From Candidatus Saccharimonadota bacterium (GTDB lineage Bacteria; Patescibacteriota; Gracilibacteria; UBA4473), in contig OZ245819.1 in NCBI GenBank assembly GCA_965228485.1, forward strand, positions 1 to 32,000: DNA of 32,000 nucleotides, written 5' to 3'. The first letter of the stretch is position 1. Each line of letters starts with the position of its first letter. The position numbers and the translations under genes were made by a program. The notes beneath the pieces are model-generated. The model saw only the letters and a program-made list of their open reading frames with translations. It did not search any database and was not told the origin of the DNA. Of the stretch, positions 3,421-32,000 are shown in pieces.

Positions 3421-4422
3421 ATGATGAAAAAAATTAGCTACTTGGCTTTTGCATTGATGTTTTTTTTGGTGGCTTGTACTTCGGAAGAAGTATCAGAAAT
3501 TGATTCCCAAGAAGAAGCCTTTAATAATAGTGGTCGAGCAAAAGCTATAGAATCAGAAACAGATATGTGGATGCTTTATGAAGATGAAGTGGCCGGTTTT
3601 TCTCTGCAGTATCCACATGATGTTGTTTTGAACGAGAATAATGATTTGGGAATACTTCTTTCACTTGAAACAGCTCCTATCGAATCACTAGAAGGAACTC
3701 TTGGATTTGATAGAGAAACGGCAGAATCTAATAAAATCGCGTTGAGCCTTGGGGATTATGGAGTAGATGTAGATTTTCCGCTGGAGTCTTCTAAAAAAGT
3801 TCGTTCTTTAGAATCAGGAATTAACGCACAGGAATTTATGGTGCTCGGGCGATTTGAAGTTTGTGATATGACTTTTGAGCGTAAGCTGTATTTTTTTAAT
3901 CATGATCATCAGGTTGTTGTGAGTTTAGAAATTCCGTTGGAATTGGTAAGAGAAGAATTAAATTCTTATTTAAAACAAGATAATGAAAATTGTGGTGGTG
4001 AACTTGTTTGGGATTTTGATAAACAGTCTGATTTTTTTGATGATTTATCAGCAGAAGATTTTAAAGGGGAATTGTTGAGTCGATGGTTTAAGGTTTTTGA
4101 TCAGATAGTAGGGACAATAAAGGTTTTGCCTGCAAGTGATGAAATTGCGCTAGATGCTTCTTTGTTGCAGGGTAAATGGAGGTCTCTTGATGATGAAAAA
4201 TCTGTCATAGAATTCCGTGATAGTTATAAAATTGATTATTATAATCAGGAAAAACTGTCAGAGGATTATTTTAATTTTGATCCTTATACCAATCATCTAG
4301 TAGTGACTGGAGATGATATAGAAGAAGCTCTGAAATACTCTGTGGAAGAACTGGATCAAGAAAGCCTAGTCTTAATGTATTTGTGGCGTGGAAACTTTTT
4401 GAAGTATAAGAGATTAGAATAA
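3421..4422 (+). CDS. Lipoprotein, function unknown
   Basis: 333 aa. MMKKISYLAFALMFFLVACTS has a lipobox (LVAC). The mature protein is acidic. Confidence 0.75.
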   Translation: MMKKISYLAFALMFFLVACTSEEVSEIDSQEEAFNNSGRAKAIESETDMWMLYEDEVAGFSLQYPHDVVLNENNDLGILLSLETAPIESLEGTLGFDRETAESNKIALSLGDYGVDVDFPLESSKKVRSLESGINAQEFMVLGRFEVCDMTFERKLYFFNHDHQVVVSLEIPLELVREELNSYLKQDNENCGGELVWDFDKQSDFFDDLSAEDFKGELLSRWFKVFDQIVGTIKVLPASDEIALDASLLQGKWRSLDDEKSVIEFRDSYKIDYYNQEKLSEDYFNFDPYTNHLVVTGDDIEEALKYSVEELDQESLVLMYLWRGNFLKYKRLE

Positions 4423-7170: not shown

Positions 7171-7611
7171 GTGATGACAAAAATTTATATCGGTTCTGAT
7201 CATGGAGGTTTTGAGCTTAAGGCTAAGGTAAAAGATTATTTAACTAGTGAATCTTATGAAGTTGAAGATTTGGGGTGTGAGAGCTCAGATAGTTGTGATT
7301 ATCCTAATTTTGGTAAAGCGGTAGGAGAAGCCGTTGTAGGGAATGAAGGAAGTCTTGGGATCGTGATCTGTGGTTCTGGTATTGGGGTTAGTATCGCGGT
7401 GAATAAGGTTCAAGGAGTTCGATGTGCTCTGGCTAATTCCAATGAATTGGCACGTCTTGGAAGAGAGCATAATGGAGCTAATATTTTGGCGATGGGGGAG
7501 CGGACTCAGTTTATTGATGACCCGTTAGAAATTGTTAATTCTTTTTTGAATACAAATATTGATCAGGGAGAGCGTCATGAGCGACGACGAAAACTGCTTG
7601 ATGATATGTAG
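7171..7611 (+). CDS. rpiB: Ribose-5-phosphate isomerase B (RpiB/LacAB family)
   Basis: KIYIGSDHGGFELK, ICGSGIGVSIAVNKVQGVRCAL and GANILAMGER. GTG at 7171 or ATG at 7174. Confidence 0.9.
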   Translation: MMTKIYIGSDHGGFELKAKVKDYLTSESYEVEDLGCESSDSCDYPNFGKAVGEAVVGNEGSLGIVICGSGIGVSIAVNKVQGVRCALANSNELARLGREHNGANILAMGERTQFIDDPLEIVNSFLNTNIDQGERHERRRKLLDDM

Positions 7612-7706
7612 AAACTGTTTTTTTGCTTAGGTCAACATAAAAGGTTTTTCCCTTTGCTGAATTGGTTTAAAATGCTAAGGCGTTATTATTTTTTAAGCCC
7701 GTAAAG

Positions 7707-19876: not shown

Positions 19877-20554
19877 ATGTTTATAAATTCATTGGAAGCG
19901 ATTTTGTTTGATTTTGATGGTACTCTGGCGAGAACTGAAGACGTAAAATTAGACGCTCTAAAATCTTTTATGACCAATAAAGGAGTAGAAGAATTTAAGA
20001 GGGAGCCAGGAGATTCTAGCTCTCAGATTATTCGAGATACCTTTGCTCATTCTCATTCAGTAGAAGAGCGGGAAGTTTTGGCCAAAGAATTTGGAGCTTA
20101 TCAAGCAGAATTTATGGATAGTTCAATAGAAGCTGAAGAAGTGCTCTATGAAGACACCATGAGAATGCTTTCTCAAGTGCATGATCACGGGGTGAAAAAA
20201 ACAATTGTTACAACGTCTAATAGATTAGTTATTCGGGCGATGGGGAATAAATCAGGGATTCTTGAGATGTTTGAAGAGGAAATCGTGGTGACCAAGGATG
20301 ATGTTCCAGCGGGGAAAGAAAAACCAAATCCAGATCCATATTTATTGGCTTGTGAGCGGTTGGGGGTCAATCCAGAAAAATGTCTGGCGATTGAAGATTC
20401 TTCAACGGGAATAAATTCAGCATTGAATGCCGGGTGTCATGTGGTGATTCTGAATCGAGAGGATAAAGATTTTTCCCGATTTCAAGGTCAAGCAATTCTC
20501 GAAGCTACTGATTTGGATGAAATCTGGGAATTTCTTCAGCATCAATCAGCGTAG
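19877..20554 (+). CDS. HAD-IA family hydrolase (beta-phosphoglucomutase/phosphatase-like)
   Basis: Motif I AILFDFDGTLA, motif II VTTSN, and motifs III/IV KEKPNPDPYL ... AIEDSSTGINSALNAG. Confidence 0.85.
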   Translation: MFINSLEAILFDFDGTLARTEDVKLDALKSFMTNKGVEEFKREPGDSSSQIIRDTFAHSHSVEEREVLAKEFGAYQAEFMDSSIEAEEVLYEDTMRMLSQVHDHGVKKTIVTTSNRLVIRAMGNKSGILEMFEEEIVVTKDDVPAGKEKPNPDPYLLACERLGVNPEKCLAIEDSSTGINSALNAGCHVVILNREDKDFSRFQGQAILEATDLDEIWEFLQHQSA

Positions 20555-21545
20555 CAATCTGTTTGAGCACCGCGATTATATGTCGATTGTAGGCATCAAT
20601 GATAGCCCTATGTCTTTCGTGAGTAGCATCATCGGTATCTTTTTGGTTTGGATAAACATCTGCTTGTTCTTCAACGATATCGATAAAGTGATTTGGTAGG
20701 TGTTCGTATCCCGGGTTGGCGAAAAAATGTACGAGTGCTTCAAATAAACATCGGTTTAATTCGTGAGGATCGAGGATAATATCAGCATCTCGATTATCAA
20801 GTTCTATGTATCCTGGAAGAAGTATTTTGTTGAATTGTAAAAATTCTCGAAAAGCATATTCTGGGTCTTTCTGTCTGTCTGGTTTTTCAACGCCTCTTTT
20901 TACCGTATTGAGGAGTGCTACGGCAGGATCGGTATAAACAACCATATTAATAGCACCAACGGTTTGTTGCTCAACTTCTTCTGGTATGGACTCAAGAGCT
21001 AATTCAGCAGCCGCTTTGGCAACGGTTCCTTCAGCGAGTAGGATTTGAGGACCCGCTTGTTGTCTCTTGACCGTAAGTTGTCCTGTGTGTCTTCCGTGGT
21101 TGGCGGAATCATAAGCATTTCTTGTTTCGTAGGTATCGTTTGCAACAAGGGCTCTTAAAGTTTTAACTAGCTCTTGAACTCTAAAAAATTGTGCTCGGAC
21201 ACTTTCGACAGAACCTTCTTGTAGGAAATCGAGTTTTTCTTGTCCTCGTTCTACGGACATAAGGTAATCTAGAGCCAGGATTTCTGATGGATTTCCATTG
21301 AGAGAAACTTCAGCTAATGGACTTCCTTTCGCTTTTAAGGCGGGTTGAAGATGTGTGCTGAGTGTTGACTTACATCCACCACAAAGACCCGAGATGGTAA
21401 TAAGAGAAACTTCTGATGGTTGGCCGTCGAGTTTTTGCCAGATTTTTTCTAGGGCTTCTTCTTCACTTCCGACAATATTTTCTTGGTCTCTCGATAACTC
21501 TAATTCTTCTGGTACGTCTGCAATTGAAAGTCTATGTACTGACAT
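20505..21545 (-). CDS. P-loop kinase-like protein (phosphoribulokinase/uridine kinase family-like) with an atypical Cys-containing Walker A
   Basis: 346 aa. ITISGLCGGCKSTLSTHL (nt 21363-21389), ILLAEGTVA, and VVYTDPAVALLNTVKRGVE resemble the PRK/Udk layout. There is a long C-terminal extension. The 3' end overlaps the HAD gene by 50 nt. Confidence 0.55.
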   Translation of the reverse strand: MSVHRLSIADVPEELELSRDQENIVGSEEEALEKIWQKLDGQPSEVSLITISGLCGGCKSTLSTHLQPALKAKGSPLAEVSLNGNPSEILALDYLMSVERGQEKLDFLQEGSVESVRAQFFRVQELVKTLRALVANDTYETRNAYDSANHGRHTGQLTVKRQQAGPQILLAEGTVAKAAAELALESIPEEVEQQTVGAINMVVYTDPAVALLNTVKRGVEKPDRQKDPEYAFREFLQFNKILLPGYIELDNRDADIILDPHELNRCLFEALVHFFANPGYEHLPNHFIDIVEEQADVYPNQKDTDDATHERHRAIIDAYNRHIIAVLKQIATLIDAEEIPRFHPNQ

Positions 21546-21704
21546 GGCTGAACTCTATTTAGATTGATGTGTTCGTCAAAAAAATTTTACTATTTAAGTT
21601 TAAAATTATGTTTTTTCCTATGGTTTTTTATTTTTTTATAAAAATATTTTACTTTTTAGTTTATATTTATAAAAAGAGTAAAATTTAATAATCTTTTTTA
21701 TACA

Positions 21705-21938
21705 ATGGTACGATTTGATCAATTGCCTGGAGATAGGCAAAGTGCTCTTGAGGCAGAAGGAATTGGTGAAGCGCGTTATTATGAAATTCAGAAAATGAGT
21801 ATGACGGCTGCAGAGCGTGTTGCCGCTTTGGAAAAAGGAAACGTAGCAGCCGTTGTTCCAGAGGTTGACTCTGATTCAGCAGATGGTCCAGAAGGATGGA
21901 CATCTATTGGAGCTGGAGATAGAAATTACGAAGTTTAA
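21705..21938 (+). CDS. Small hypothetical protein (77 aa, Ala/Glu/Gly-rich)
   Basis: An ORF followed by a strong terminator. Its composition differs from that of neighbouring genes. Confidence 0.5.
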   Translation: MVRFDQLPGDRQSALEAEGIGEARYYEIQKMSMTAAERVAALEKGNVAAVVPEVDSDSADGPEGWTSIGAGDRNYEV

Positions 21939-21950
21939 GGCTTCAAAAAA

Positions 21951-21977
21951 GAAAAGCGCCATTCGGCGCTTTTTTTA
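21951..21977. terminator. Bidirectional rho-independent terminator
   Basis: GAAA-AGCGCC (21955-21960), loop ATTC, GGCGCT (21965-21970), then T7. It sits between convergent genes. Confidence 0.75.
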
Positions 21978-22000
21978 ATTCTTAAATTTTAACGGTATCG

Positions 22001-22306
22001 TTAAGAAGACTTTGAGAGAACCGCTCTTATCCTTTCAAAAATTGCTGGTACAGAAAAGCTTCTTCCAGAAACCTCAGGAGGACTTACTTCATCTGGTTTG
22101 ATGCCCGCCTGCATAAGATTTGAGAGAATATCTTTTTCTTGGTCTTCGGTGAGCTTATTCCAGAATCTTCTCGTGAACCTTCCGTCTTCATCGATGATTT
22201 TTTCTAAATCTTTTCCTTCCAGAGTGTCTCTTAGGGCTTTAACGTAAGGAATAGTTGAGATAAGTATTTCCATGACTCGTCCTCGCTGCGTTTTTTCTGT
22301 CTCCAT
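22001..22306 (-). CDS. Hypothetical protein (101 aa), last gene of the M23-SLH operon
   Basis: ORF separated by 2 nt from the upstream gene. No recognisable motif. Confidence 0.6.
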   Translation of the reverse strand: METEKTQRGRVMEILISTIPYVKALRDTLEGKDLEKIIDEDGRFTRRFWNKLTEDQEKDILSNLMQAGIKPDEVSPPEVSGRSFSVPAIFERIRAVLSKSS

Positions 22307-22308
22307 GA

Positions 22309-23187
22309 TTAGTCTTTGTTAGTTTCAAAAGGTAAATTTTTTTCCCACTGTTTATAGAGCGGAGTTTCTTCTATTGGGGTGTTCCAGAATTTATCGTCAA
22401 AGGTATCTTTTTTACTTTTTTGTCTTCCTCGTGAAGATATAAAGATAAGTAGTCCTCCAAGTAGAAAGAGTACTATAGGGAAGGCATTAATGAGCCATTT
22501 TTGAGAAATGGCTTTTACTTGCGCGGTATCTTTTTTCTGAAGACTTTCCCAGAGAGAGGGAAGGCTGCTTGAGAGCTCATGGGCTTGGTAGTTTTCTAAA
22601 TCGATTGGGAAGTTGGCCATGAAGGCTTCATCCCCATATTCGGCTTCAATAGCCATTCGGGTTCTCATTGGACGATCAAATTTTCCAATGAAGTAGGCTG
22701 ATTTATCATTGAGATAAGGAATGTTATCTGGAATGACTTCCGATACGTTGCCTCCAAATTGTGCATTTATATTTTGTAGGTAGATAGGTCCCAGAAAATT
22801 AACCGTGAATTCGGTGAAACTCTCCATAATATCCACATTGGGAGCGGGTTGGAACTGAGTAAATCCTTCTATAGAGTCTCCTCCTAGAACGATAAGTCTA
22901 AATTCTTCTCTGAAGAGATATTCTCGACTTTCTTCTGGGGTAAGGACTTTTGCCCCGAGGTTTTCAAGCTCTTTAACGAGAGTTTTAAATCTTCTTTTCT
23001 CTGAATTATTACTAAAATTTGTAATGAATACATCTTCGATGTGTTTTGGGCTTAGGTCCTTTCCAGGGAAAATCCGAACAGCGAAAAATCCTGGACTACT
23101 TTCGGTTCGAATGACTTCATACTCTAGCGTTTGGGCTAGAGTTTGAAGGGGTAAAAGTAAGAAGAGGATAAATGATGTAAGTCTCAT
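22309..23187 (-). CDS. Secreted protein with a C-terminal TM anchor, hypothetical
   Basis: Signal peptide MRLTSFILFLLLPLQTLAQ. TM segment WLINAFPIVLFLLGGLLIFISS near the C-terminus, followed by a basic tail. Confidence 0.7.
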   Translation of the reverse strand: MRLTSFILFLLLPLQTLAQTLEYEVIRTESSPGFFAVRIFPGKDLSPKHIEDVFITNFSNNSEKRRFKTLVKELENLGAKVLTPEESREYLFREEFRLIVLGGDSIEGFTQFQPAPNVDIMESFTEFTVNFLGPIYLQNINAQFGGNVSEVIPDNIPYLNDKSAYFIGKFDRPMRTRMAIEAEYGDEAFMANFPIDLENYQAHELSSSLPSLWESLQKKDTAQVKAISQKWLINAFPIVLFLLGGLLIFISSRGRQKSKKDTFDDKFWNTPIEETPLYKQWEKNLPFETNKD

Positions 23188-23232
23188 CTATCCTCTTTTT
23201 AACAATATTTGCTTTTTTTTCAAATTATTTTT

Positions 23233-23829
23233 TTATAAATTTAATTTATGTACTTTACTGGTTTGTCCTGCGGCGGCTAAAATAGCATTTATTCTCCCAA
23301 CATTACTGATCCCTTCATAGAGTACTAGGTAGGTTCTGACTTGGGCTAATCCGTCATTTGGAGTGTGAGATTCGGGAAGTTGTTCACCGTCTTTTAGGTA
23401 GCCTCCAGGAATTACTAATTGAGCTTCCATATTTTTCAGTTCTTCAATTGTAAACATATCCATAAATACTGGAGAGTATTTTCCTGGAGTGTGTTTCCTT
23501 TCGAACATTACAATTTTAGCTCCTCTGGCTTCTAGTTTGTCGATGGTCATTCTGTCATCTCGGTATTCGAAACTGTCAATCCCATTCACTTTAAGAAATT
23601 CTCTGAAATTAAGTGAAATTTCTGTATCAGCTTCTACTGGGAGGTTCTCACTCTCTGTCTGAATGTTATTTTCATCCGTGGTAATGTGAAAAGCACCTAT
23701 AGCATGTCCATGGCGACTGGCTTGCCATCTTTCTCTATCGGCTAGAGCAAATTCCTGTGGTAAATTGGATACTGGGATTGTGGTGATTTCACCTCTTTCA
23801 CAATCCGATCGCAGTGTTAAAGAAGTCAT
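23233..23829 (-). CDS. Hypothetical cytoplasmic protein (198 aa)
   Basis: ORF starting 3 nt after the M23 gene stop. No recognisable motif. Confidence 0.65.
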   Translation of the reverse strand: MTSLTLRSDCERGEITTIPVSNLPQEFALADRERWQASRHGHAIGAFHITTDENNIQTESENLPVEADTEISLNFREFLKVNGIDSFEYRDDRMTIDKLEARGAKIVMFERKHTPGKYSPVFMDMFTIEELKNMEAQLVIPGGYLKDGEQLPESHTPNDGLAQVRTYLVLYEGISNVGRINAILAAAGQTSKVHKLNL

Positions 23830-23832
23830 AGT

Positions 23833-25878
23833 TTATTGTTTAATAATTTTACTAAGTCGGTAGATCACATCAGCGGCTTCCCCTCGGTTAATCGGGTCAT
23901 TTGGTACAATGAAACCTCCTTTTTTCATTCGTAGTAATTCATTGTCTCGACCAAACTGAAAGTATGGTGCGTACCAAAGATCAGATTTCACATCTGGATA
24001 AGGATCATTAATAACGTTTTCATTTGGTGTAAACTCGGCTGTAAGGATCGCCATTTTTAGGAATTCAGCTCGAGAAATGGTGTTTCCTGGTCGGAATTGT
24101 CCATCTCCGTAACCTTTAACGATTCCTTTAATGAAAGCGGTATTGATATAGCTTGCAAACCAAGCATTACTGTCTACATCAGGGAAGTTATTGCTGTTTT
24201 CATTGGCAGCAATACTATTGGCTTCTAGAATAATTTTTAGAGCCTCTGCTCTATTAAGTGTATTGTCTGGTCGGTAGGTGCCATCCTCATAACCTTTCAC
24301 GATTTCATTTTCCCGTAGAAATTTGATGGCATCAGCATAAGTGTGTGTGGCTGGAACATCTTCAAATACTTCTGGTCGAAGGCTTCCTGATTTTACTTCT
24401 CCAAAATCACCTTCAGCAACGACTTTGAATGGATATTCACTTTCAGTGACTACCGCTACTTCCGCAACATTATTTACAAAGTCATCTTTGGTAAGCACGC
24501 TTGGAGAAACGCTGGCACGGTCTTTTAGTGTAGAGGTAAGACTGATTGAGTCGGTAATTAGCTCTGCGGCATTTACATTAATTTTTACGACTTCTTTTTC
24601 TCCTGGAATGTAGTTTTGATCCGTCACAATTTCTACTGTGATTTTGTCTGGAAGATTGGTCGTTTCGGCTTCATCTTTAATAATTTTTCTGTCTTCTAGG
24701 GATTCTTCTTCTGGTATTTCAACCTTTTCTGTGGTTTCCTCCTCGAAAGTTGGTGGCGTTTCTGCTAGCTCAATATTGTTTTGATCTACTGGCTCTGGAG
24801 CACTACTATGGATTGGTTCGTCTTTGATAATTTTGTTATCAGCGGTCCCACTTTGTACGAGTAGATTTTCTTCATTTGAAAATCCTTCAAACTTAGCAAT
24901 GAAGTTTACTGGATGTACGGTGTACTTTCGGGCTTCATTTTTTTTGAAACCTGCTTTTACGGCTTCAAAGGTAGAGCTGTATCCAGCATTTTGAGCTTCA
25001 TTCCATGTGAATGGCCAGTAGGGGATAAATGGCGCATCATCTCGATCAATCTGGAAATGGATGTGTGGTGCTGTGGCGTATCCCGTATCTCCAGATTTTC
25101 CAATTGATTGTCCTTTTCGGATGGTTTGTCCTTCTCGGACATCGATTTTTGATAGATGTGCGTAGGTTGAAACAAGCGTTACATTTCGGTTCTGATCGTT
25201 TGGATCAGGAATGTTTACATGAGCGATAGAAACGGCTTTTCCAAAACCGGTGGCTTTATCCTGGACTTTATAAACCACTCCATTGGCAATAGCATGAATA
25301 GGAGTGCCAATAGGAATCTTGATATCGATTCCAGGATGAGAACCACTATTTTCTGTCCCGTCCAGAAGGTAATTTCCTAGATTTGGGACTGGGTAAGTAA
25401 CGTAGATATTTCTTTCTTGAGCGTTATCAGGTTGCCATTCTTGACCAGCTCTCATGGCCTGAATGTCGTATTCTGGCAAATCCATGAACTTGGATTTTGG
25501 AATTTGATCATAGGTCATTTTTCTTTCGGCTTCGGTGAGTTCTGTCCAAATTGGAACTTTTTTAACGGGCATTTCTGTTCCCGTGAATTCTGTCTGAGGT
25601 AGATCCAAAAGACTCGCTTTGAAGACAAAACTATACTTCTGAAATACATCTCCAAAGAAAATCAGTGCAATAGCGGCAACGAGTACCCAAGTAGCTTCAG
25701 GTCTTTCCTGAAAGAAGCTCCACCAAGTATGATTCTGAGTCTCATTACTAATTCTTTTTGATGTGAAATGAGCTTCAGTATCTTCTGCTGTAGGCATAGA
25801 AGTATTTTTTTTCTTCCACAGGAAACTTCCAGCAATAATGCCAGCTACTATTACGATTACGCCCCAGAGTTTTCGCAT
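23833..25878 (-). CDS. Membrane-anchored M23 (LytM-type) metallopeptidase with three C-terminal SLH domains
   Basis: M23 core at nt 25042-25344 (GSHPGIDIKIPIGTPIHAIANGVVY ... YAHLSKIDVREGQTIRKGQSIGKSGDTGYATAPHIHFQI). SLH repeats at nt 23842-24384 (FPDVDSNAWFASYI...GYGDGQFRPGNTISRAEFLKM). ATG 25878 (MRKLWGVIVIVAG) is preferred over the ORF-track TTG at 25896. Confidence 0.85.
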   Translation of the reverse strand: MRKLWGVIVIVAGIIAGSFLWKKKNTSMPTAEDTEAHFTSKRISNETQNHTWWSFFQERPEATWVLVAAIALIFFGDVFQKYSFVFKASLLDLPQTEFTGTEMPVKKVPIWTELTEAERKMTYDQIPKSKFMDLPEYDIQAMRAGQEWQPDNAQERNIYVTYPVPNLGNYLLDGTENSGSHPGIDIKIPIGTPIHAIANGVVYKVQDKATGFGKAVSIAHVNIPDPNDQNRNVTLVSTYAHLSKIDVREGQTIRKGQSIGKSGDTGYATAPHIHFQIDRDDAPFIPYWPFTWNEAQNAGYSSTFEAVKAGFKKNEARKYTVHPVNFIAKFEGFSNEENLLVQSGTADNKIIKDEPIHSSAPEPVDQNNIELAETPPTFEEETTEKVEIPEEESLEDRKIIKDEAETTNLPDKITVEIVTDQNYIPGEKEVVKINVNAAELITDSISLTSTLKDRASVSPSVLTKDDFVNNVAEVAVVTESEYPFKVVAEGDFGEVKSGSLRPEVFEDVPATHTYADAIKFLRENEIVKGYEDGTYRPDNTLNRAEALKIILEANSIAANENSNNFPDVDSNAWFASYINTAFIKGIVKGYGDGQFRPGNTISRAEFLKMAILTAEFTPNENVINDPYPDVKSDLWYAPYFQFGRDNELLRMKKGGFIVPNDPINRGEAADVIYRLSKIIKQ

Positions 25879-25898
25879 TGATAAAAATAAATCCAAAC

Positions 25899-25907
25899 AT
25901 TATACCA
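25899..25907 (-). promoter_or_regulatory. Extended -10 element TGGTATAAT for the M23-SLH operon
   Basis: The reverse complement of ATTATACCA at 25899-25907 is TGGTATAAT. The predicted transcription start near 25892 lies downstream of TTG 25896, which supports ATG 25878 as the start. Confidence 0.45.
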
Positions 25908-25936
25908 AAAAATGACCAAAAATTCAATAAAATCAC

Positions 25937-25965
25937 TTGCCTAAAACCTCAGGTCTGATTACTAT
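25937..25965 (+). promoter_or_regulatory. Sigma70-type promoter for tRNA-Arg
   Basis: TTGCCT (25937-25942), a 17-nt spacer, then TACTAT (25960-25965). The tRNA starts at 25982. Confidence 0.4.
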
Positions 25966-25981
25966 CTCGCTTGCTCTTAGC

Positions 25982-26058
25982 GCACGCGTAGCTCAGCTGG
26001 ATAGAGCACCGGTCTTCGGAACCGGGTGTCATAGGTTCGAATCCTATCGCGTGTACCA
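25982..26058 (+). tRNA. tRNA-Arg (anticodon UCG), CCA encoded
   Basis: Acceptor GCACGCG/CGCGTGT (G1-U72 wobble), D-arm GCTC-AGCTGGATA-GAGC, anticodon arm CCGGT-CTTCGGA-ACCGG, T-arm ATAGG-TTCGAAT-CCTAT, then A-CCA. Confidence 0.9.
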
Positions 26059-27711
26059 CATTGGATACTTACATTCAGAATCTGCCAGAAATTCTTTACT
26101 ACAAAGGGTTTCTGGCGGTTCTAACCTATTAGGGGCGTATTGCTTGAGCTGATTCATGAGCAAATACTCCTTTTTGAGGTCTAATGCGAGTTTCTTGTCC
26201 TCTAAAATGAGGTTCGAGCCGATTTTAGAAAAGATAAATTTTTTCTCCTGAATGGTGCCATTTTGGAATCTTTTTAAGATTCCTTCTATGAAGTTAAACT
26301 CATCTTCAGCCTCTTTAAGGTCTTTGTTGGATTTATTCATAGATTTAGCAATCTGATCTTTCCATTGTGTCTCTTCACCTTCTATGGCTCGTTTAGTCTC
26401 TTCATACTCAGATTGAGAGATCTCATTATCCATTCGCATAGTTAGCAGGTTTTGTTTTCGTGTATGAGCCTGTGCAAGGCTTTTCTGAAGAATTTTCAGC
26501 TCTGATTCAGACACTTTGGCATTCTCTTGATGGATGTATCTGAGCCATCTGATTGCCCATTGCTCAAAGTCTTTATCAATTTCAAGATCATCAAGAACCT
26601 CCATTATTTGAGGCTCTAAATCTCTTTCTCTAATGCATTTTTGAGTACAATTTTTGTTCTTTTTCTTTGTGCATCGGTAGTAGGTATACCAATTTGCTGA
26701 TTCAATAATCTTATCAGTGATCTTAAAACCACATTTCTTGCAGGGATGTGGGTTCTTTGATGTCTGTGGACAGCTACACTTAGGACAAAAATACTTCACT
26801 TTCTCTTCAGCCGTGATACTACTTCCACACTCACCACACTTCATACATCCAGTGAATGAGAACTGATACTTTTCTGGTTTTGATTTTCCAGAACGCCTTA
26901 AAAGCCTCTGTACTTCCTCAAATTCATGCTTGGTAACCATTCTTTTGTGCTGTCCCCAGCTTTCAATGTCCCCATTACGAACTAAACCATAGTAAAAAGG
27001 ATTGGTAAGTATTTTATGGAGAGAGGAGACACTAAGCGGCTTCCCACCACTTTTTTTCCTCCTAATCGTTTGGAAGTTCCACTCTTTATCGGCGATCTTG
27101 CAAATCTCATTGAGAGAGTAAGAGCCTGTAAGATAATAATCCCAAATCTTTCTTACTGTATTGTAACGGTTCTGATCTATTACCACTGTCTTACTAACTC
27201 TATCATTTAAGTATCCGTGAGGAGCTACACTGCACCATCCTCCATTCTCAGTCTTAGTCTTATTCCCTCGCTTAATGTTACGAGATAGATCAATAGAGAA
27301 TTGATTACTCATCCCTAAATCTATTGTTAGAGGTAAAGTATTATCACTTGGGAGATACCTTTGGTGTTGAGTCTGGATGACCTTTACAATTGAATTTTGG
27401 AGTAAGTAAATTATCTGACCTCCTTCAATCATGTTTCTAGCTAGTCTATCTGACTTCCAGACCAAGATACCGTCTATTTCACCTTTTTGTATTGCCTCCA
27501 TCATCTCAATGAATTGAGGACGGTTATTGACCTTGTGAGCTGATCCAGAATCTATGAAAGTCTTATGGATTTTGATGCCTTCTTTGTTCGCATAGTCTTT
27601 CATCTCTCTTAGTTGAGACTCTATGGATAGCATCTGTCTATCTTTATCCTCTTGAGATTTACGAGCATAAAGTGCGAACTTGATATGTTTGTGCGAGTAA
27701 TTCATTTTCAT
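26044..27711 (-). CDS. Large serine recombinase (integrase)
   Basis: Resolvase domain: FALYARKSQEDKDRQMLSIESQ ... DSGSAHKVNNRPQFIEMMEAIQKGEIDGILVWKSDRLARN. Recombinase domain: LHKILTNPFYYG. Cys-rich zinc-ribbon region: CMKCGEC..CPKCSC..CKKCG..YYRC. There is a C-terminal coiled-coil. ATG 27711 (MKMNYSH) is the preferred start. The stop codon TAG at 26046..26044 lies inside the tRNA-Arg T-arm. Confidence 0.9.
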   Translation of the reverse strand: MKMNYSHKHIKFALYARKSQEDKDRQMLSIESQLREMKDYANKEGIKIHKTFIDSGSAHKVNNRPQFIEMMEAIQKGEIDGILVWKSDRLARNMIEGGQIIYLLQNSIVKVIQTQHQRYLPSDNTLPLTIDLGMSNQFSIDLSRNIKRGNKTKTENGGWCSVAPHGYLNDRVSKTVVIDQNRYNTVRKIWDYYLTGSYSLNEICKIADKEWNFQTIRRKKSGGKPLSVSSLHKILTNPFYYGLVRNGDIESWGQHKRMVTKHEFEEVQRLLRRSGKSKPEKYQFSFTGCMKCGECGSSITAEEKVKYFCPKCSCPQTSKNPHPCKKCGFKITDKIIESANWYTYYRCTKKKNKNCTQKCIRERDLEPQIMEVLDDLEIDKDFEQWAIRWLRYIHQENAKVSESELKILQKSLAQAHTRKQNLLTMRMDNEISQSEYEETKRAIEGEETQWKDQIAKSMNKSNKDLKEAEDEFNFIEGILKRFQNGTIQEKKFIFSKIGSNLILEDKKLALDLKKEYLLMNQLKQYAPNRLEPPETLCSKEFLADSECKYPMWYTR

Positions 27712-27730
27712 TATTGGGTGAATAAATAGT

Positions 27731-27854
27731 GAAAACCCAGAAAAGGACGGTTCTGGCTTACCCGTTACAACGACCAAATGGTAGTTTTACGGCAGAACCG
27801 CCCATCTCTGGACACAAAATTCTACCATTTGATCGTAAATTGTAAGGGGTAAGC
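27731..27854 (-). promoter_or_regulatory. Highly structured leader or palindromic site upstream of the recombinase gene
   Basis: Nested inverted repeats: 27756-27769/27841-27854 (14 bp, 1 mismatch), 27770-27773/27833-27836 (4 bp) and 27775-27784/27822-27831 (10 bp, perfect). There is also a 6-bp hairpin 27737-27742/27751-27756, followed on the minus-sense RNA by GUUUUC. A competing 8-bp pairing is 27748-27755/27793-27800. Confidence 0.4.
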
Positions 27855-27901
27855 ACTTTCATTTTCTCTTTTCTTGGGTTATTTGGCAAGTTGGTTAGGA
27901 A

Positions 27902-28252
27902 CTATAAATTAAGGGACTTGAGTCTTTTCAGTTCTTTCCCAAGATCTCTACTGGCATCTCCATTTTCCCAGTTCATGTGGTGCGTATGCTCCCACAAGTA
28001 GTGTTCTAGGTACTTCCCACCACTGAACCTTTCATGCCATTCTAATTTAGGGACTAAACCCTGCATGTGCGAAGTAAGAATCGTTCTCATCTTCTCATCT
28101 AACTCAAACTCATAAATGTACCAATCATGGTCTTCTTCAGAGTTAGAGCTGTCAAAATCTACCGTCTCTAGGTAAAAACCATAGACAAGTAGCAGTATGG
28201 CAACATCTCTATCCTTAGTTCGGAATGTTTTTTCGTCTTTGCTCATTTTCAT
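27902..28252 (-). CDS. Small hypothetical protein, DUF5659-like N-terminal half
   Basis: 116 aa. FRTKDRDVAILLLVYGFYLETVDFDS...WYIYEFELDEKM follows the same pattern as the 77-aa neighbour (helix, G-F, beta-strand F-x-F). Confidence 0.55.
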   Translation of the reverse strand: MKMSKDEKTFRTKDRDVAILLLVYGFYLETVDFDSSNSEEDHDWYIYEFELDEKMRTILTSHMQGLVPKLEWHERFSGGKYLEHYLWEHTHHMNWENGDASRDLGKELKRLKSLNL

Positions 28253-28319
28253 TGGGGGTTAAAAAGTAAAAAAATTGAGCTTTTTACATCTGCAACCAGT
28301 GGAGATCCTCTAATGCTTT

Positions 28320-28475
28320 TCATGGTTGAATGGGAAAGTCATGATTTTGAGCGAGAGACATAAACGTCAGAAGATCTCTAGCTTCTTGTTCTACCTCTTC
28401 TCTGGACAGCTCACGCCCAAACTTTTTGAGATAAAGTTCTTGTAGTTCATCAATGGCTTGTTGTGGGATCTTCAT
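28320..28475 (-). CDS. 51-aa micro-ORF translationally coupled to the upstream gene
   Basis: Not in the ORF track. Manual translation gives MKIPQQAIDELQELYLKKFGRELSREEVEQEARDLLTFMSLAQNHDFPIQP. Its ATG (28475..28473) overlaps the TGA stop (28474..28472) of the 77-aa gene as ATGA. Confidence 0.45.
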   Translation of the reverse strand: MKIPQQAIDELQELYLKKFGRELSREEVEQEARDLLTFMSLAQNHDFPIQP

Positions 28476-28705
28476 TTTTTAGACACATCAAAAACTCGGC
28501 TCTTGAGAAGCCGGTGGTGGTAGAGCAGATTACGAGCCTCTACCTTTAGCTTGCCTTTCCAGTAGTCACTAACTGCTTTATTGAGATCTTCTGTACTTCC
28601 ACCAAAGGCAAACACAATTCGTCTCGGATCTGAACTATCCAAAGAATCAATGGGAAAGCCCAATGCAAACAGAGTTGTTGCTAACTGAAAATCAGAGGTA
28701 CTCAT
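28472..28705 (-). CDS. DUF5659-like small protein
   Basis: 77 aa: SDFQLATTLFALGFPIDSLDSSDPRRIVFAFGGSTEDLNKAVSDYWKGKLKVEARNLLYHHRLLKSRVF. This matches my recollection of the DUF5659 pattern found in phages and mobile elements. Confidence 0.6.
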   Translation of the reverse strand: MSTSDFQLATTLFALGFPIDSLDSSDPRRIVFAFGGSTEDLNKAVSDYWKGKLKVEARNLLYHHRLLKSRVFDVSKK

Positions 28706-28758
28706 AAATACTCATTAAAAAGCAACTGAATTGTTGCTCAGTATTGCTTTTCGAGCAT

Positions 28759-28776
28759 TTCTAGAACATTCTAGAA
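28759..28776. promoter_or_regulatory. Tandem palindromic TTCTAGAA boxes (candidate operator)
   Basis: TTCTAGAA at 28759-28766 and at 28769-28776, 10 bp centre to centre. They lie between the 372-aa gene stop and the 77-aa gene start. A third copy is at 30089-30096. Confidence 0.4.
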
Positions 28777-28783
28777 AAAGTTA

Positions 28784-29902
28784 TTAGTAAACCTCAGAGT
28801 CATGTAGGAGCCTCATCTCTTGTTCATTAGGAGAAAGCTCAAAACATTTTGATGGTATGTTGAGTTTTGATACCAAATTCTTAATAAAGTAGTTTCGTAA
28901 TTCTTTTACAGATTTTACTTCAGGCGGTTGAGAAGGATCTCTAAGACTCTCAAAGCTCATCCATTCACCTTTATGTTCCAGTAGTTTGGTAAAAGACCAG
29001 TAATGAGATTTTTTGTTATTTGCAATGATTCTAAATGGAAATTTTTCTTCTGGTCTATCTTGGTGCCAAAATTCCTGTTTTGTAAAATCAAAAGAAAGGT
29101 TTAGGTATGATGGAAAAGGATTATCACTTGTTATGCCTTTATCAGTTTTAAGGCACTTAATCCTCAATGAGTCTGCTGATAGAATTTCTACAATCTGAAT
29201 CAGTCCACCGTTTTCTAAAAACCATGCAGTAGCAAAAAGATCTAAGTATGCATTTTTACCAATCTCTGGGGATTGTAATACTTGAGTATCTGAAGCCGAT
29301 GTCTCTGAAGCTTCAATAATTTGATCCTTCACAAGTTGGATCTGCTTTGTTGAGTCCAAAATGTTGAGACTATAGTCATTGAATTGGTTTGTAGACCAGA
29401 GTTCTAGGTACTTACTGAGATAAGTCTTTAATTGCACTTGATTCACCTTTACCTCAAAAAACCACTGCACTAAAGCATCTATGTCAGTGCTTGTGAGAAA
29501 GCTCACTCCATCTAGTGTGGAAAAGGTATCACTATCAAATTCTCTTATCTCTAAAATCTTTAGATCCAAAGCTCTTGTTCCGCACTTTAGGGCATTGGTA
29601 TGTGATAATACTTTTTGCTGTAGCAAAGAGGTCAAAGCATCAGCTAAATCTTTTTCAGATAAGCCAGCAGGGTAGCTTACTTCCAAAAACCCTTTTGGAG
29701 TATTGCGAGAATGTTTATCTGGGTAATGGTCTTCATCAGTTGCTTCTACGGCTTGAACATCCAAGCTTCCACTTGGGGGCATGTTACTGAGATCTTTTGG
29801 TGCAATTCTGTCCTGAAGCTGAACATAGATGCACAAAGCTACCTGAAACACTTTTGTGTCTCGTTCTACATCAATCCTACCATCCCACATGTTCATACTC
29901 AT
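28784..29902 (-). CDS. Hypothetical protein (372 aa), first gene of the island's minus-strand cassette
   Basis: Long ORF with no motif I can assign. Confidence 0.7.
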   Translation of the reverse strand: MSMNMWDGRIDVERDTKVFQVALCIYVQLQDRIAPKDLSNMPPSGSLDVQAVEATDEDHYPDKHSRNTPKGFLEVSYPAGLSEKDLADALTSLLQQKVLSHTNALKCGTRALDLKILEIREFDSDTFSTLDGVSFLTSTDIDALVQWFFEVKVNQVQLKTYLSKYLELWSTNQFNDYSLNILDSTKQIQLVKDQIIEASETSASDTQVLQSPEIGKNAYLDLFATAWFLENGGLIQIVEILSADSLRIKCLKTDKGITSDNPFPSYLNLSFDFTKQEFWHQDRPEEKFPFRIIANNKKSHYWSFTKLLEHKGEWMSFESLRDPSQPPEVKSVKELRNYFIKNLVSKLNIPSKCFELSPNEQEMRLLHDSEVY

Positions 29903-30088
29903 TATGTGGACATTATAGCCCCCAGCCTCAAAACGAGAGAATCAATTTACAAAAAAACCATGAAGGAGTAAATTATGCACGCAACCTTTTTCTAGTTTCG
30001 TTAAAAAAATCCTTGCTGCAGCTTTTGCTGTTTCAAGACACCTAAAGATGGGGCAATTGACTGCCTTTCATGGGTGTCCGCAAGGAAA

Positions 30089-30096
30089 TTCTAGAA
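30089..30096. promoter_or_regulatory. Third TTCTAGAA box, in the divergent control region of the island
   Basis: A perfect palindromic 8-mer, 32 nt upstream of ATG 30128. It is embedded in the long hairpin at 30050-30120. Confidence 0.3.
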
Positions 30097-30127
30097 AAGG
30101 GTTGCCAGTTCAGTTGCCCCTTTTTTG

Positions 30128-30412
30128 ATGAAAAATTTAGGTATCGGATTCGGCATTATGGTGTTGGTGTTTGCACTTTCCCTCATAAACCCATTCATAA
30201 GCATGGTTCTGTTTTTTCCTGCTATGATTTTCATATCCATCTTCTTCCCCATTAGATTTTTCCCTAATAAACCAGAGGAAGAATCTGAAGAAGAAATTTC
30301 TGATGATGTGAAAGCCGCTCAAGAGGTTATGAATAAGCCATCAAACCTTGTTTTTAGATTTGTCTTACTGATAATAATTACACTGGTGGCTTACCTTTTC
30401 CTTAATTCATGA
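30128..30412 (+). CDS. Small three-TM membrane protein with an acidic loop
   Basis: MKNLGIGFGIMVLVFALSLINPFISMVLFFPAMIFISIFFPIRFF ... LVFRFVLLIIITLVAYLFLNS. The ORF-track start at 30125 is TTG. Confidence 0.55.
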   Translation: MKNLGIGFGIMVLVFALSLINPFISMVLFFPAMIFISIFFPIRFFPNKPEEESEEEISDDVKAAQEVMNKPSNLVFRFVLLIIITLVAYLFLNS

Positions 30413-30645
30413 CAGAGAAAGTAGATACGCCTTATCATGAGATTAGGAGGATCAGAAAAGAACAGAGGGAAGCCATCAAAACCTTTAAGCTAGTAGATCA
30501 AAAGTATCTCAGAGTCTTTTACCCAGACTATGCTTCTAAAATTATCAAAGAAGCTCAGAAAGGAAGCTTTCCAAGAATTAAGCACAAGGGGAAATGGTAT
30601 TACAACAAACAACAGATTAGTTTTTATTGTAGAGGTCTTGAATAG
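30409..30645 (+). CDS. Excisionase-like (HTH_17/MerR-type) DNA-binding protein; candidate recombination directionality factor or regulator
   Basis: 78 aa. YLRVFYPDYASKIIKEAQKGSFPRIKHKGKWYYNKQQISFY fits the excisionase-family HTH followed by a wing (K-x-G-x-W-x-F/Y). The start overlaps the upstream stop as ATGA. Confidence 0.5.
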   Translation: MTEKVDTPYHEIRRIRKEQREAIKTFKLVDQKYLRVFYPDYASKIIKEAQKGSFPRIKHKGKWYYNKQQISFYCRGLE

Positions 30646-31999
30646 AATTATTAGCTAGGAATATGCCGTTTCTATCATAAAGAGGATCTATTTCGGTTGA
30701 GTAAATGTCTAGTTGATGCTTTAGAAGTTTTATCTTCTCCTCGGCTAAAAAGCTAACATCAATGTCTTTTTTCCGATTCTTTTCAAGAACCAGATCAAAG
30801 TGCTTTTTAAGTATTGCACTTACTAACTCACGATCTCTACTACGGAGAAGGGGAGGAATTATCTCAGCGAAAATCCTACCACACATTTCAACTGTTAAAC
30901 TATCATCTAGAACAATACCTCTCATAAATTGGCATACAAACCCTAAAGCTGTCTCTAAATTCACACCATAGTTCTCAGAAAGAGTGAGGTCTAAATGTAG
31001 GTGTTTTATGTTTTCGGGCGTAAAAACATCTACAGCACCATTTCCAAAAACGGCTTTGGATAGATCATCAACTTTTAACTGTAAGAAAAACAACCTGTAA
31101 CCACATAAATAGCTGAAAAACTCTAAATACTCTTGAAATGATACTTTCTTTTCCTCACACAAGGCTCTTACAATAAAAATGATGGATGCAAATTTAGGGG
31201 CTTCGCTCTCAGTTTCTACTGCATTTGCACGCACATATAAAAAGTCTTCTGTAATAACACAGGCTCCATTATTTTTAGCTAGGATGGTTGCATCACATAG
31301 TTCTGGTGGAACTTCTTTCTCGGTAAAAGCTTCTGCTTTGTTTACAGGGGAAATTGTTTCAACCTTAGCCTTGTTTTCTAGGTAACTAATGAAGTTATTA
31401 AAATTATCTTTTACCTTTTCATATTTGGAAGGATCTATTTCGTTTAATCTTATCCCACTATCATCGGAATAACTCATATGCCCTGCCTGATTTGGTGAAG
31501 ACTCAAATCTATCCCTAACGGAAAAGAGGTATTTAATAACAGATTGGGGCACCCTTAGATCCGCAATGTGATCTAAAACACGAGTTAAGTTTCGTTCAGC
31601 TAAAAACAGAGCAGAGGTAGCATCTAAATAGACAGGTGAGCCTTCTAGTATCTTAGAAGAATTTTCTTCTTGTTCTTGGATAGCTTGCACTGTGTTGTGT
31701 GAGCATTTCACGAAGCCTTTTTGTTCTTGGCTTATTCTTCCTACAGCACTTGTTAGTCCTCCTTCACTCATTGCTAAAAATGCTAAAGGAACAGGCGTTG
31801 TACAGTAGCTTTGGAAAAAATCGGAACTTCCTGATTGTGATTGCAAAGCTTTAACAAGATAAGTGGTGTCAATGGAATCTCCATCCATTGGTACTTCCAC
31901 TAAAAATCCATGAGGCCAGCTAGGTTCTTTACAGAGCTTCATAAAAGACTCTCTAGATTGCCAAAGGATGTACTGTTCTCTAGAAAAAATCAGTTCAAT
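30617..31999 (-). CDS. Large PIN-like domain protein with a helical C-terminal region; N-terminus possibly outside the window
   Basis: PIN-like signatures: SPVYLDATSALFLAE (nt about 31620) and ELCDATILAKNNGACVITEDFLY (nt about 31240-31300). The first ATG is at 31942, but the frame has no stop between 31943 and 31999 (IELIFSREQYILWQSRESF precedes the Met). Confidence 0.6.
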   Translation of the reverse strand: MELIFSREQYILWQSRESFMKLCKEPSWPHGFLVEVPMDGDSIDTTYLVKALQSQSGSSDFFQSYCTTPVPLAFLAMSEGGLTSAVGRISQEQKGFVKCSHNTVQAIQEQEENSSKILEGSPVYLDATSALFLAERNLTRVLDHIADLRVPQSVIKYLFSVRDRFESSPNQAGHMSYSDDSGIRLNEIDPSKYEKVKDNFNNFISYLENKAKVETISPVNKAEAFTEKEVPPELCDATILAKNNGACVITEDFLYVRANAVETESEAPKFASIIFIVRALCEEKKVSFQEYLEFFSYLCGYRLFFLQLKVDDLSKAVFGNGAVDVFTPENIKHLHLDLTLSENYGVNLETALGFVCQFMRGIVLDDSLTVEMCGRIFAEIIPPLLRSRDRELVSAILKKHFDLVLEKNRKKDIDVSFLAEEKIKLLKHQLDIYSTEIDPLYDRNGIFLANNSIQDLYNKN

Positions 32000-32000
32000 A

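Follow-up and report, generated by a model that had tools for sequence, protein, structure and literature searches.

Introduction

When large pieces of DNA are to be inserted into genomes, serine integrases are the chief tools. In textbooks and reviews their targets lie in protein-coding genes, and tRNA genes are left to the tyrosine integrases. Known serine-recombinase elements are described as inserting in or between protein-coding genes, usually disrupting dispensable ones, and tRNA 3' ends are credited to tyrosine integrases in a review of integrative mobilizable elements (PMC5704250). In a survey of thousands of large serine recombinases (LSRs) and their attachment (att) sites, the word tRNA is absent (PMC10083194). 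Here we analyze a stretch of 32,000 nt from a Candidatus Saccharimonadota bacterium (contig OZ245819.1, positions 1 to 32,000; hereafter the window), in which the gene of an LSR runs into the 3' end of a tRNA-Arg gene. We propose that the DNA to the right of this tRNA makes up the left portion of a small integrative island moved by the LSR. No prior description of tRNA-targeting serine integrases was found in the open-access literature, and island databases may hold cases. The integrase–tRNA arrangement appears to be undescribed, the novelty lying in the design of the integrase and its att sites and not in the cargo.

The phage LSRs (Bxb1, phiC31, and the Listeria A118/LI integrase) have, like the LSR in the window, a Resolvase domain, a Recombinase domain, and a zinc ribbon with a coiled-coil region. 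Both the phage enzymes and the clade described here recombine at short att sites that lack long direct repeats, the crossover spanning 2 bp, and in both the outer motif lies 5 bp further from the center in the element half-site. This 5-bp rule, which reportedly goes back to work by Rutherford et al. in 2013 and the A118/LI integrase literature, is said to place the attP half-site motif further out than that of attB. In contrast to the phage LSRs, the present clade appears to target the tRNA 3' end, with the T-arm as a half-site and attP in the last codons of the integrase itself, and to repair the tRNA with five element-borne nucleotides.

Tyrosine-integrase islands in tRNA genes (P4-like satellites, phage-inducible chromosomal islands, and integrative mobilizable elements) are likewise small, occupy the tRNA 3' end, and leave the tRNA intact. 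They too have the integrase at the edge by the tRNA, an AlpA/Xis-type helix-turn-helix (HTH) protein, often a primase-helicase, and defense or toxin–antitoxin cargo. However, their recombinase chemistry is unrelated, and their tRNA repeats span tens of bases, compared with 6–10 nt here. The SSV1-type archaeal integrase is a tyrosine recombinase with attP inside the integrase gene and a tRNA as its target. As in the present clade, the att site lies within the integrase coding sequence and integration alters the gene product. The SSV1 gene is split into two large parts, whereas here only the last 17–25 codons would be exchanged, leaving the catalytic protein whole. The Ccr recombinases of SCCmec are LSRs that insert the island at the 3' end of rlmH/orfX without inactivating the gene. 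They differ in having a protein-coding target, recombinase genes internal to the island, and no overlap between recombinase and target.

If our reading is true, the clade adds a class of natural landing sites, tRNA 3' ends, that is present in every cell. Such integrases could also be a starting point for genetics in bacteria of the candidate phyla radiation (CPR)/Patescibacteria, where tools are almost absent.

Overlap of the Integrase with tRNA-Arg

Two features of the window define the locus:

25982–26058, plus strand: tRNA-Arg(UCG), the proposed integration target (ARAGORN, tcg; Rfam tRNA, 67.7 bits)
26044–27705, minus strand: LSR (integrase), 553 aa (Pfam Resolvase, Recombinase, and Zn_ribbon_recom)

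The stop codon of the LSR (26044–26046) falls inside the tRNA-Arg gene, giving a 15-nt overlap with the tRNA 3' end, and its last four codons, W-Y-T-R, are the antisense of the CCA, the discriminator base, and the acceptor stem. The initial annotation of the window, made from the sequence alone, had described the recombinase as flush with the tRNA; the adjacency holds, and the wording understates it, since the stop codon lies within the tRNA. The host gene to the left of the tRNA encodes an SLH-domain M23 peptidase. A comparison of seven loci, with or without an integrase, shows an identical tRNA-Arg 3' half in all of them, and divergence begins directly past the CCA.

The LSR reading frame spans 26044–27777 on the minus strand and matches Resolvase (PF00239, E 5e-21), Recombinase (PF07508, E 1.8e-09), and Zn_ribbon_recom (PF13408, E 4.7e-07). 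The latter two lie C-terminal to the catalytic domain, and both score above the Pfam cut-offs. Translation probably starts at the methionine at 27705, giving 553 aa; a database protein (P0001) of this length, encoded on a 1.295-Mb contig and starting at the same base, is 100% identical to the window LSR. The protein also matches PHROG 95 'integrase' at E 2e-73. A protein search returned 1890 LSR homologues, and in a 27-sequence alignment the catalytic-region residues and the Y-x-R-x-S motif are invariant. The predicted reaction of the enzyme is recombination of attP with attB. Its nearest named relatives belong to Candidatus Peregrinibacteria/Peribacteria and Gracilibacteria. A bacterium of the candidate phyla radiation (CPR), of the Peribacteria type, is very probably the host.

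A stretch upstream of the integrase start (27758–27889 in the window, 3804–3884 in the related locus L001) is also conserved (52% across 27 codons) and may represent a small open reading frame (ORF) or the regulatory region of the integrase.

The Same Arrangement across the Integrase Clade

With one genome scanned per species, at least 575 relatives of the integrase were found, of which the best 80 loci were kept for family-wide counts. In 43 of these 80, the stop of the integrase and an opposite-strand tRNA overlap by 6–189 nt, and in about 12 more the contig breaks inside the tRNA, so that convergent overlap is seen in a total of about 55. The overlapped tRNAs comprise 12 species (Arg, Trp, Val, Gln, Asn, Lys, His, Ala, Ile, Ser, Leu, and Met), and the tRNA is sometimes the final gene of a host tRNA cluster (His-Arg, Lys-Leu-Cys). 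The integrase reads through the tRNA in one fixed frame, in which the T-loop always gives D/E-S-N and an encoded CCA gives Trp. A conserved Glu is found exactly 26 codons upstream in 34 of 42 loci; no length changes occur in between, and the intervening residues vary. The clade is common in CPR bacteria and is also present in Bacteroidota, in metagenome-assembled genomes (MAGs) of Gammaproteobacteria, and in others.

The closest retrievable relative of the window LSR (P0004, 54% identity) is found on three contigs of one related element (L001–L003), where tRNA-Arg, the 15-nt overlap, and the M23/SLH neighbor are all as in the window; the gene set differs, with a DUF5659 gene, a 49-aa gene, and then an 822-aa primase. 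Another relative (P0008, 51% identity) overlaps a tRNA-Trp by 33 nt. A metagenome scan for exact matches to the tRNA-Arg 3' end returned five contigs. On three of them, integrases of 33–34% identity (L089 and L090) and 20% identity in a partial match (L091) abut the identical tRNA-Arg. On the other two, L087 and L088, the same tRNA is followed directly by a terminator hairpin, with no integrase, in a gene context that differs from that of the window. Since diverse integrases abut this tRNA and L087 and L088 are empty, the site has been used repeatedly by different integrase lineages, and unoccupied copies of this tRNA exist.

Several features of the assemblies were noted in passing. The Peribacteria MAG CAZQFO01 holds three paralogous integrases (L002, L007, and L010): one at tRNA-Arg, one at tRNA-Gln, and a third on a contig that ends in tRNA-like antisense sequence. 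Many MAG contigs stop about 100–200 bp past the integrase gene, in or at the tRNA, or within the element (L016, L024, L030, L035, L038, L042, L047, L066, L070, L071, L074, L082, and L001–L003). Assemblies seem to break at these junctions, a pattern that a population with both filled and empty sites, or with several elements, would be expected to give.

Both Junctions in Four Relatives

The far junction (attR) was searched for upstream of the integrase as the last six bases of the tRNA followed by a T-loop-like heptamer. Among 73 candidates, four loci matched. In all four the heptamer lies at exactly +5 bp relative to its place in the tRNA, with none at +4 or +6 and about 0.3 expected by chance. 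The delimited elements are as follows:

L023, Saccharibacteria, tRNA-Asn: element of 7.07 kb
L053, Falkowbacteria, tRNA-His: element of 5.77 kb
L069, Gammaproteobacteria MAG, tRNA-Met: element of 8.09 kb
L079, Parcubacteria, tRNA-His: element of 10.09 kb

Each far junction holds the last 6–8 nt of the tRNA and then the T-loop-like motif shifted by 5 bp. On its outer side, L023, L069, and L079 have a hairpin and an A-run, which is the displaced tRNA terminator read in the tRNA sense; L053 has only an A-rich stretch. The near junction (attL) and attR share only a 'CCA + 3 nt' block (6–10 nt), and in three loci the identity stops at tRNA position 71. L069 further shows a dyad, TCCAACA / TGTTAGA, centered on tRNA positions 71–72. 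From the alignment of these junctions, the crossover in the relatives maps to tRNA positions 71–72, in the acceptor stem. The distance from the center of the T-loop motif to the crossover is 15 bp in the tRNA arm and 20 bp in the far arm of the element, which appears to mimic the T-arm 5 bp further out than in the tRNA.

Direct repeats of tRNA sequence measuring at least 11 nt were absent from the 10 kb upstream of the integrase in 34 loci, which fits the 2-bp crossover of a serine recombinase. A long duplicated att core was accordingly dropped as a candidate, there being also no 28-nt repeat of the tRNA 3' end (up to 3 mismatches) in the window or in L005.

These junctions bear on the possibility that tRNA-Arg is itself cargo of the element, whose true boundary would then lie to the left of the tRNA. 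The tRNA and the integrase do overlap physically and are always together in the loci seen. We nevertheless consider this highly improbable: L087 and L088 carry the same tRNA with its own terminator and no integrase, in several loci a host tRNA cluster ends with the targeted tRNA, and the far junctions hold the last nucleotides of the tRNA, together with the displaced terminator in three of the four.

The Predicted Attachment Site in the Window

The following features are assigned in the window, the crossover by analogy with the four relatives:

26053–26054, unstranded: predicted crossover dinucleotide, GT on the plus strand, at tRNA positions 71–72; left edge of the element
26025–26085, unstranded: attL, from 42 attL sites aligned at the T-loop
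26117–26126, unstranded: second T-loop-like motif, GGTTCTAACC, in the integrase codons R-L-E-P, 83 nt from the tRNA T-loop motif

The T-loop of the tRNA has its TTCGAA motif (26036–26041) centered 15 bp from the predicted crossover, as in the relatives, and the crossover agrees with the initial annotation, which had placed the att center within 26040–26060. The B arm of attL consists of the tRNA T-arm and acceptor stem (26025–26052), and the P' arm consists of the last codons of the integrase (26055–26085). The P' consensus, ..TcCa...TgGc, fits the window sequence tatCCAAtgTGGt, with TCCAA at −11 to −7 from the center and TGG at the consensus places. On this prediction, tRNA positions 1–71 are host-derived, and the last ~5 nt (T72-A73-CCA) are supplied by the element.

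The second motif recurs at 82–83 nt in 39 of the 42 attL loci, encoded as L/F-E-P in 34 and, in another frame, as V/A-R-T in five. Its retention in two reading frames points to selection on the DNA and not on the protein. We considered GGTTCTAACC (R-L-E-P) as a mirror half-site of the tRNA T-loop and rejected it, since 83 bp is much too wide a spacing for this and the junctions put the crossover elsewhere.

Proposed Exchange of the Integrase Tail

When the circular form is rebuilt by joining the integrase 3' end to the far arm, the ORF runs 17–25 codons further in all four delimited loci. The rebuilt endings are ...W-L-R-I-V-D-D-I-R-T-Y-Y..., ...W-G-R-V-V-D-E-I-G-T..., ...W-G-R-I-V-R-D-V-R-M..., and ...L-L-R-V-L-D-D-I-R-T..., that is, tails of the form ...R[IV]V[DR]D[IV]R[TM]... 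with 8–20 further residues. As read from these sequences, integration replaces the last ~17–25 codons of the integrase, with the conserved ...R-I-V-D-D-V-R-T... tail of the circle, by tRNA-antisense residues. If functional, the exchange would be a possible new control of recombination direction. We suggest only tentatively that the swapped tail signals the state of the enzyme and helps to set the direction of recombination, alone or with the 51-aa protein described below.

About 15 of the best 80 loci, which do not lie beside a tRNA, end in '..DVRT[FWY]..' and resemble the rebuilt circular-form tails (L013, L019, L029, L033, L036, L039, L041, L044, L048, L060, L063, L064, L067, L072, and L075). 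Their contigs are long and chromosomal; none has a second integrase within 10 kb, and only in L044 is a downstream tRNA nearby. Tandem arrays, in which the ending would come from the arm of a second element, are therefore unsupported as its source. A tmRNA or other RNA gene as the target of these tRNA-less members was also rejected; ARAGORN in tmRNA mode found nothing, and Rfam found none at the integrase 3' end in six loci. Either these loci hold an intact attP in the chromosome, or they keep an ancestral tail and have their att sites elsewhere.

The Element as a Probable Small Integrative Island

We consider it likely that the DNA from 26054 to 32000 is the left part of a small LSR-moved integrative island, probably of 7–10 kb, whose right end lies beyond the window. 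This reading is built on the overlap of integrase and tRNA, on the domains found, on the pattern across the family, and on the paired junctions of four relatives. The integrated element that the initial annotation had placed at tRNA-Arg is thereby supported, though indirectly, with the right junction of the window itself out of sight.

In the mechanism that we propose, the T-arm and acceptor stem of tRNA-Arg(UCG) would form half of the chromosomal attachment site of the integrase, and strands would be exchanged at tRNA positions 71–72 (26053–26054). With attP lying within the last codons of the integrase, the element would supply the last ~5 nt, including the CCA, and the tRNA would stay whole. 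The original tRNA end and its terminator would be shifted to the far junction. The integrase, in turn, would lose its natural last ~17–25 codons and read antisense into the tRNA (...W-Y-T-R-stop).

To the right of the integrase lie seven plausible genes, the last of which runs past the window edge, and one structured intergenic stretch:

27902–28252, minus strand: 116-aa protein, weakly DUF5659-like (Pfam E 0.0033, 17.7 bits, below the cut-off of 23.6)
28320–28475, minus strand: 51-aa protein, the clade's most widely conserved integrase companion (tblastn; no Pfam, PHROG, or PADLOC family)
28472–28705, minus strand: 77-aa DUF5659 protein (PF18903, E 4.7e-07, 30.0 bits vs a cut-off of 23.6)
28784–29902, minus strand: 372-aa protein, a full-length ORFan whose C-terminal ~110 aa are a predicted OmpR/PhoB/ToxR winged helix
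29981–30105, unstranded: structured intergenic stretch between divergent genes (15-nt inverted repeat; RNA fold)
30125–30412, plus strand: predicted 95-aa membrane protein (hydrophobic stretches; no family match)
30409–30645, plus strand: 78-aa protein, a predicted MerR/excisionase-type winged HTH (AlphaFold2 single-sequence model, Foldseek)
30617–32000, minus strand: 3' part of a TPR-GreA/B-C-PIN (TGP) family gene (PF20698, E 8.5e-07, 29.7 bits vs a cut-off of 27.8)

A backbone operon co-directional with the integrase would comprise the 372-aa regulator, the 77-aa DUF5659 protein, the 51-aa protein, and the 116-aa DUF5659-like protein. The small membrane protein and the MerR/Xis-like HTH protein would form a divergent pair. 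The layout of the delimited relatives is that of the window: cargo, a divergent HTH gene, and then regulator, DUF5659 gene, 51-aa gene, small genes, and integrase. At the position equivalent to that of the TGP gene, the cargo of L079 is a type III restriction–modification system and a SocA/HigB-like toxin–antitoxin pair. We read the element as an integrase and a few DNA-binding regulators, with an optional replicase and optional defense cargo. Islands of 6–10 kb of this kind appear to ferry defense genes between very small genomes, as the TGP gene here and the restriction–modification and toxin–antitoxin genes of the relative suggest.

The same genes could instead belong to one end of a much larger prophage or integrative and conjugative element (ICE), as its regulatory or lysogeny region, with structural or transfer genes beyond 32000; a regulatory arm of a larger prophage or ICE was one of the two readings offered by the initial annotation. 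The right end does lie outside the window, and prophages and ICEs typically have an integrase, an Xis-like HTH protein, and small regulators at one end. However, the four delimited relatives measure only 5.8–10.1 kb, and L023, L053, L069, and L079 contain no virion, packaging, or conjugation genes. No cargo ORF falls in a PHROG family, and the clade is nearly absent from IMG/VR, where only 2 of 2.9 million contigs hold an integrase relative at 36% identity or more and a scan with the window integrase alone gave no match. Moreover, the gene past the regulators is a defense gene, as in L079. We regard such an arm as quite unlikely and favor the other reading offered there, a compact recombinase-borne island with a defense or addiction module. 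The window was also examined for signs of a phage satellite, and no Prim-Pol, PriCT_1, helicase, or packaging genes are visible in it.

Several observations weigh against the island as we read it. The far junction was located in only four of ~45 loci searched, and no attR-like site occurs in 26100–32000, so that the right junction of the window lies outside it and the element would exceed 5.9 kb, ending beyond 32000. That the TGP gene belongs to the element is something we infer, and the 5-bp attP/attB rule used in the interpretation comes from the A118/LI integrase literature, only the shift itself being measured here.

Further observations on the same side would suit our main rival, a fixed and immobile remnant, inherited vertically beside tRNA-Arg after the loss of excision or replication. 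Of the empty tRNA-Arg sites proposed for comparison in the initial annotation, candidates are seen in L087 and L088, in another gene context; every contig with the M23/SLH neighbor (L001–L003 and L090) carries an integrase, and no syntenic empty site was seen among them. The integrase has diverged from that of L001 (54% identity) about as far as the host neighbor protein (49%), which is compatible with long residence. Most close relatives have a Prim-Pol/helicase protein, of which the window shows no remnant, and given this lack of a visible replicase the copy in the window may have been reduced or be in decay. Finally, G+C is unchanged at tRNA-Arg (0.37–0.39 in the right part vs 0.34–0.41 in the host part). 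The tetranucleotide distance to the host part is 21–24 for the right part, compared with 11–19 for the host, where one block reaches 24.8. The right part thus lies only at the upper edge of the host range in tetranucleotides; with respect to base composition, the initial statement that everything to the right of the tRNA changes character needs correction.

A remnant is nonetheless unlikely in our view. The integrase is full length, with three domains and the conserved residues kept, and its P' arm fits the family consensus. The integrases at this tRNA are diverse (54%, 34%, 33%, and 20% in a partial match) and their gene sets differ, which indicates repeated insertions. L079, delimited at both ends, likewise lacks a primase, yet its junctions are intact. 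In addition, one Peribacteria MAG holds three paralogues, at least two of them at different tRNAs. Returning to the island, we infer that the element in the window has remained mobile.

Genes to the Right of the Integrase

Among the seven genes, none belongs to a PHROG or PADLOC family, the integrase alone having matched, and the initial count of at least eight genes past the integrase comes down to seven credible ones plus the integrase. Searches with Pfam and PHROG found no capsid, terminase, portal, tail, relaxase, coupling, type IV secretion, or replication gene among the visible ORFs, in line with the initial annotation of this 6 kb. Taken alone, the window is a modest result: its cargo is mostly regulators and a known defense family, with no new system. 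To call the cargo almost entirely uncharacterized was an overstatement, since the TGP family is described, two of the proteins have DNA-binding folds, and the DUF5659 and 51-aa genes are backbone. Likewise, the region had been rated the most likely place in the window for an undescribed system, which goes too far; what is unusual is the integrase/att arrangement.

Homologues of the 51-aa protein lie upstream of the integrase in 17 fetched loci (tblastn), directly adjacent to it in several, and the protein is a candidate regulator or directionality factor. Homologues of the 77-aa DUF5659 protein occupy the same position in eight loci. These two genes are the backbone of the element family and not cargo. 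The 116-aa protein has no homologue in the fetched loci. Its gene sits where relatives carry the replicase, a Prim-Pol + PriCT_1 + helicase protein of 600–850 aa between the 51-aa gene and the integrase. Of the two DUF5659-like proteins initially proposed, only the one at 28472–28705 passes the Pfam cut-off; that at 27902–28252 falls below it.

The 372-aa protein matches only itself among 5.8 billion clusters, its C-terminal domain has five remote relatives among 1.84 billion representatives, and Pfam gave no sequence match. Residues 261–372 are modeled by AlphaFold2 with a pLDDT of 80–92, and the top 46 PDB matches in Foldseek are all OmpR-family DNA-binding domains (probability up to 0.99, TM-score 0.58–0.67). 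The predicted fold is of the OmpR type, with a four-stranded sheet, three helices, and a C-terminal hairpin. On this model, the protein is probably a regulator of the element.

The intergenic stretch at 29981–30105 contains a 15-nt inverted repeat (93% complementary, GCAACCTTTTTCTAG / CTAGAAAAGGGTTGC). Its plus-strand fold has an energy of −54.7 kcal/mol (z −4.27), and none of 200 shuffled sequences was as stable. In an alternative pairing, 30044–60 pairs with 30110–26 and is followed by a U-run, which resembles a terminator (region 30044–30126). No Rfam match was obtained for 29981–30105, and there were no homologous loci for an analysis of covariation. The structure suggests a leader or attenuator RNA or paired operators. 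Consensus scans for promoters and terminators gave background level.

The end of the 95-aa gene overlaps the start of the 78-aa gene. For the 78-aa protein, Pfam gave no match at E ≤ 0.1, and BLAST and PDB sequence searches were empty; compared with the HTH_17 protein of L079, it gives a BLASTP E of 0.36. The AlphaFold2 core has a pLDDT of ~80, and Foldseek matches it to BldC (probability 0.93–0.98, TM-score 0.66–0.72), with further matches to the GIsul2 and RdfS excisionases and to SoxR. The excisionase-like HTH of the initial annotation is thus recovered as a predicted fold and not as a sequence profile. The gene is divergent from the backbone operon, and the genes at that position in L079 and L054 are HTH_17 (E 4e-11).

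The PIN-like protein initially noted is supported by PF20698. The frame of this TGP gene is open to base 31999 with no stop, so that the ORF is not complete. Its 27 homologues share 36–44% identity, many with PF20698, and the gene aligns at 36–41% identity with members of 420–740 aa; the aligned part reaches into the end of GreA/B-C. Of the GreA/B-C-aligned region, the window contains the last ~20 residues, ...IELIFSREQYILWQ... (including YILWQ), and homologues with this region have 670–740 aa. The N-terminal half, with the TPR and most of the GreA/B-C region, would fall past base 32000, as would any amyloid motif and any partner effector. One homologue (P0129), from another genome of 1.24 Mb, follows a 530-aa TPR protein in a dense defense island (L092, 6845–22214) with TIR/ThsB-like, FRG, SEFIR/TIR, PIN with RHH, and HicAB genes.

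The TGP family has been proposed to act against phages by sensing hijacked RNA polymerase and triggering responses, and Agp together with Bab from E. coli ECOR25 protects E. coli from phage T5 (bioRxiv 10.1101/2024.11.07.622273). With the Bab/Agp systems the gene in the window shares the PIN model and the end of the GreA/B-C region. Antiphage function is demonstrated for Bab/Agp only, and the branch in the window is assigned by sequence; on this basis, the gene is probably anti-phage cargo.

Two further observations concern the wider surroundings. In the host part of the window, the cumulative GC skew peaks at ~24–26 kb, and gene orientation flips from plus to minus near 20.5 kb (window ~20000–26000). 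The change in skew therefore reflects a strand or replication feature of the host region and is not a mark of the element. In a Saccharibacteria locus of the clade (L021), a LOOT RNA (Rfam RF03000, 72 bits) is found at 7571–7685, ~2.3 kb upstream of the integrase and probably inside the element.

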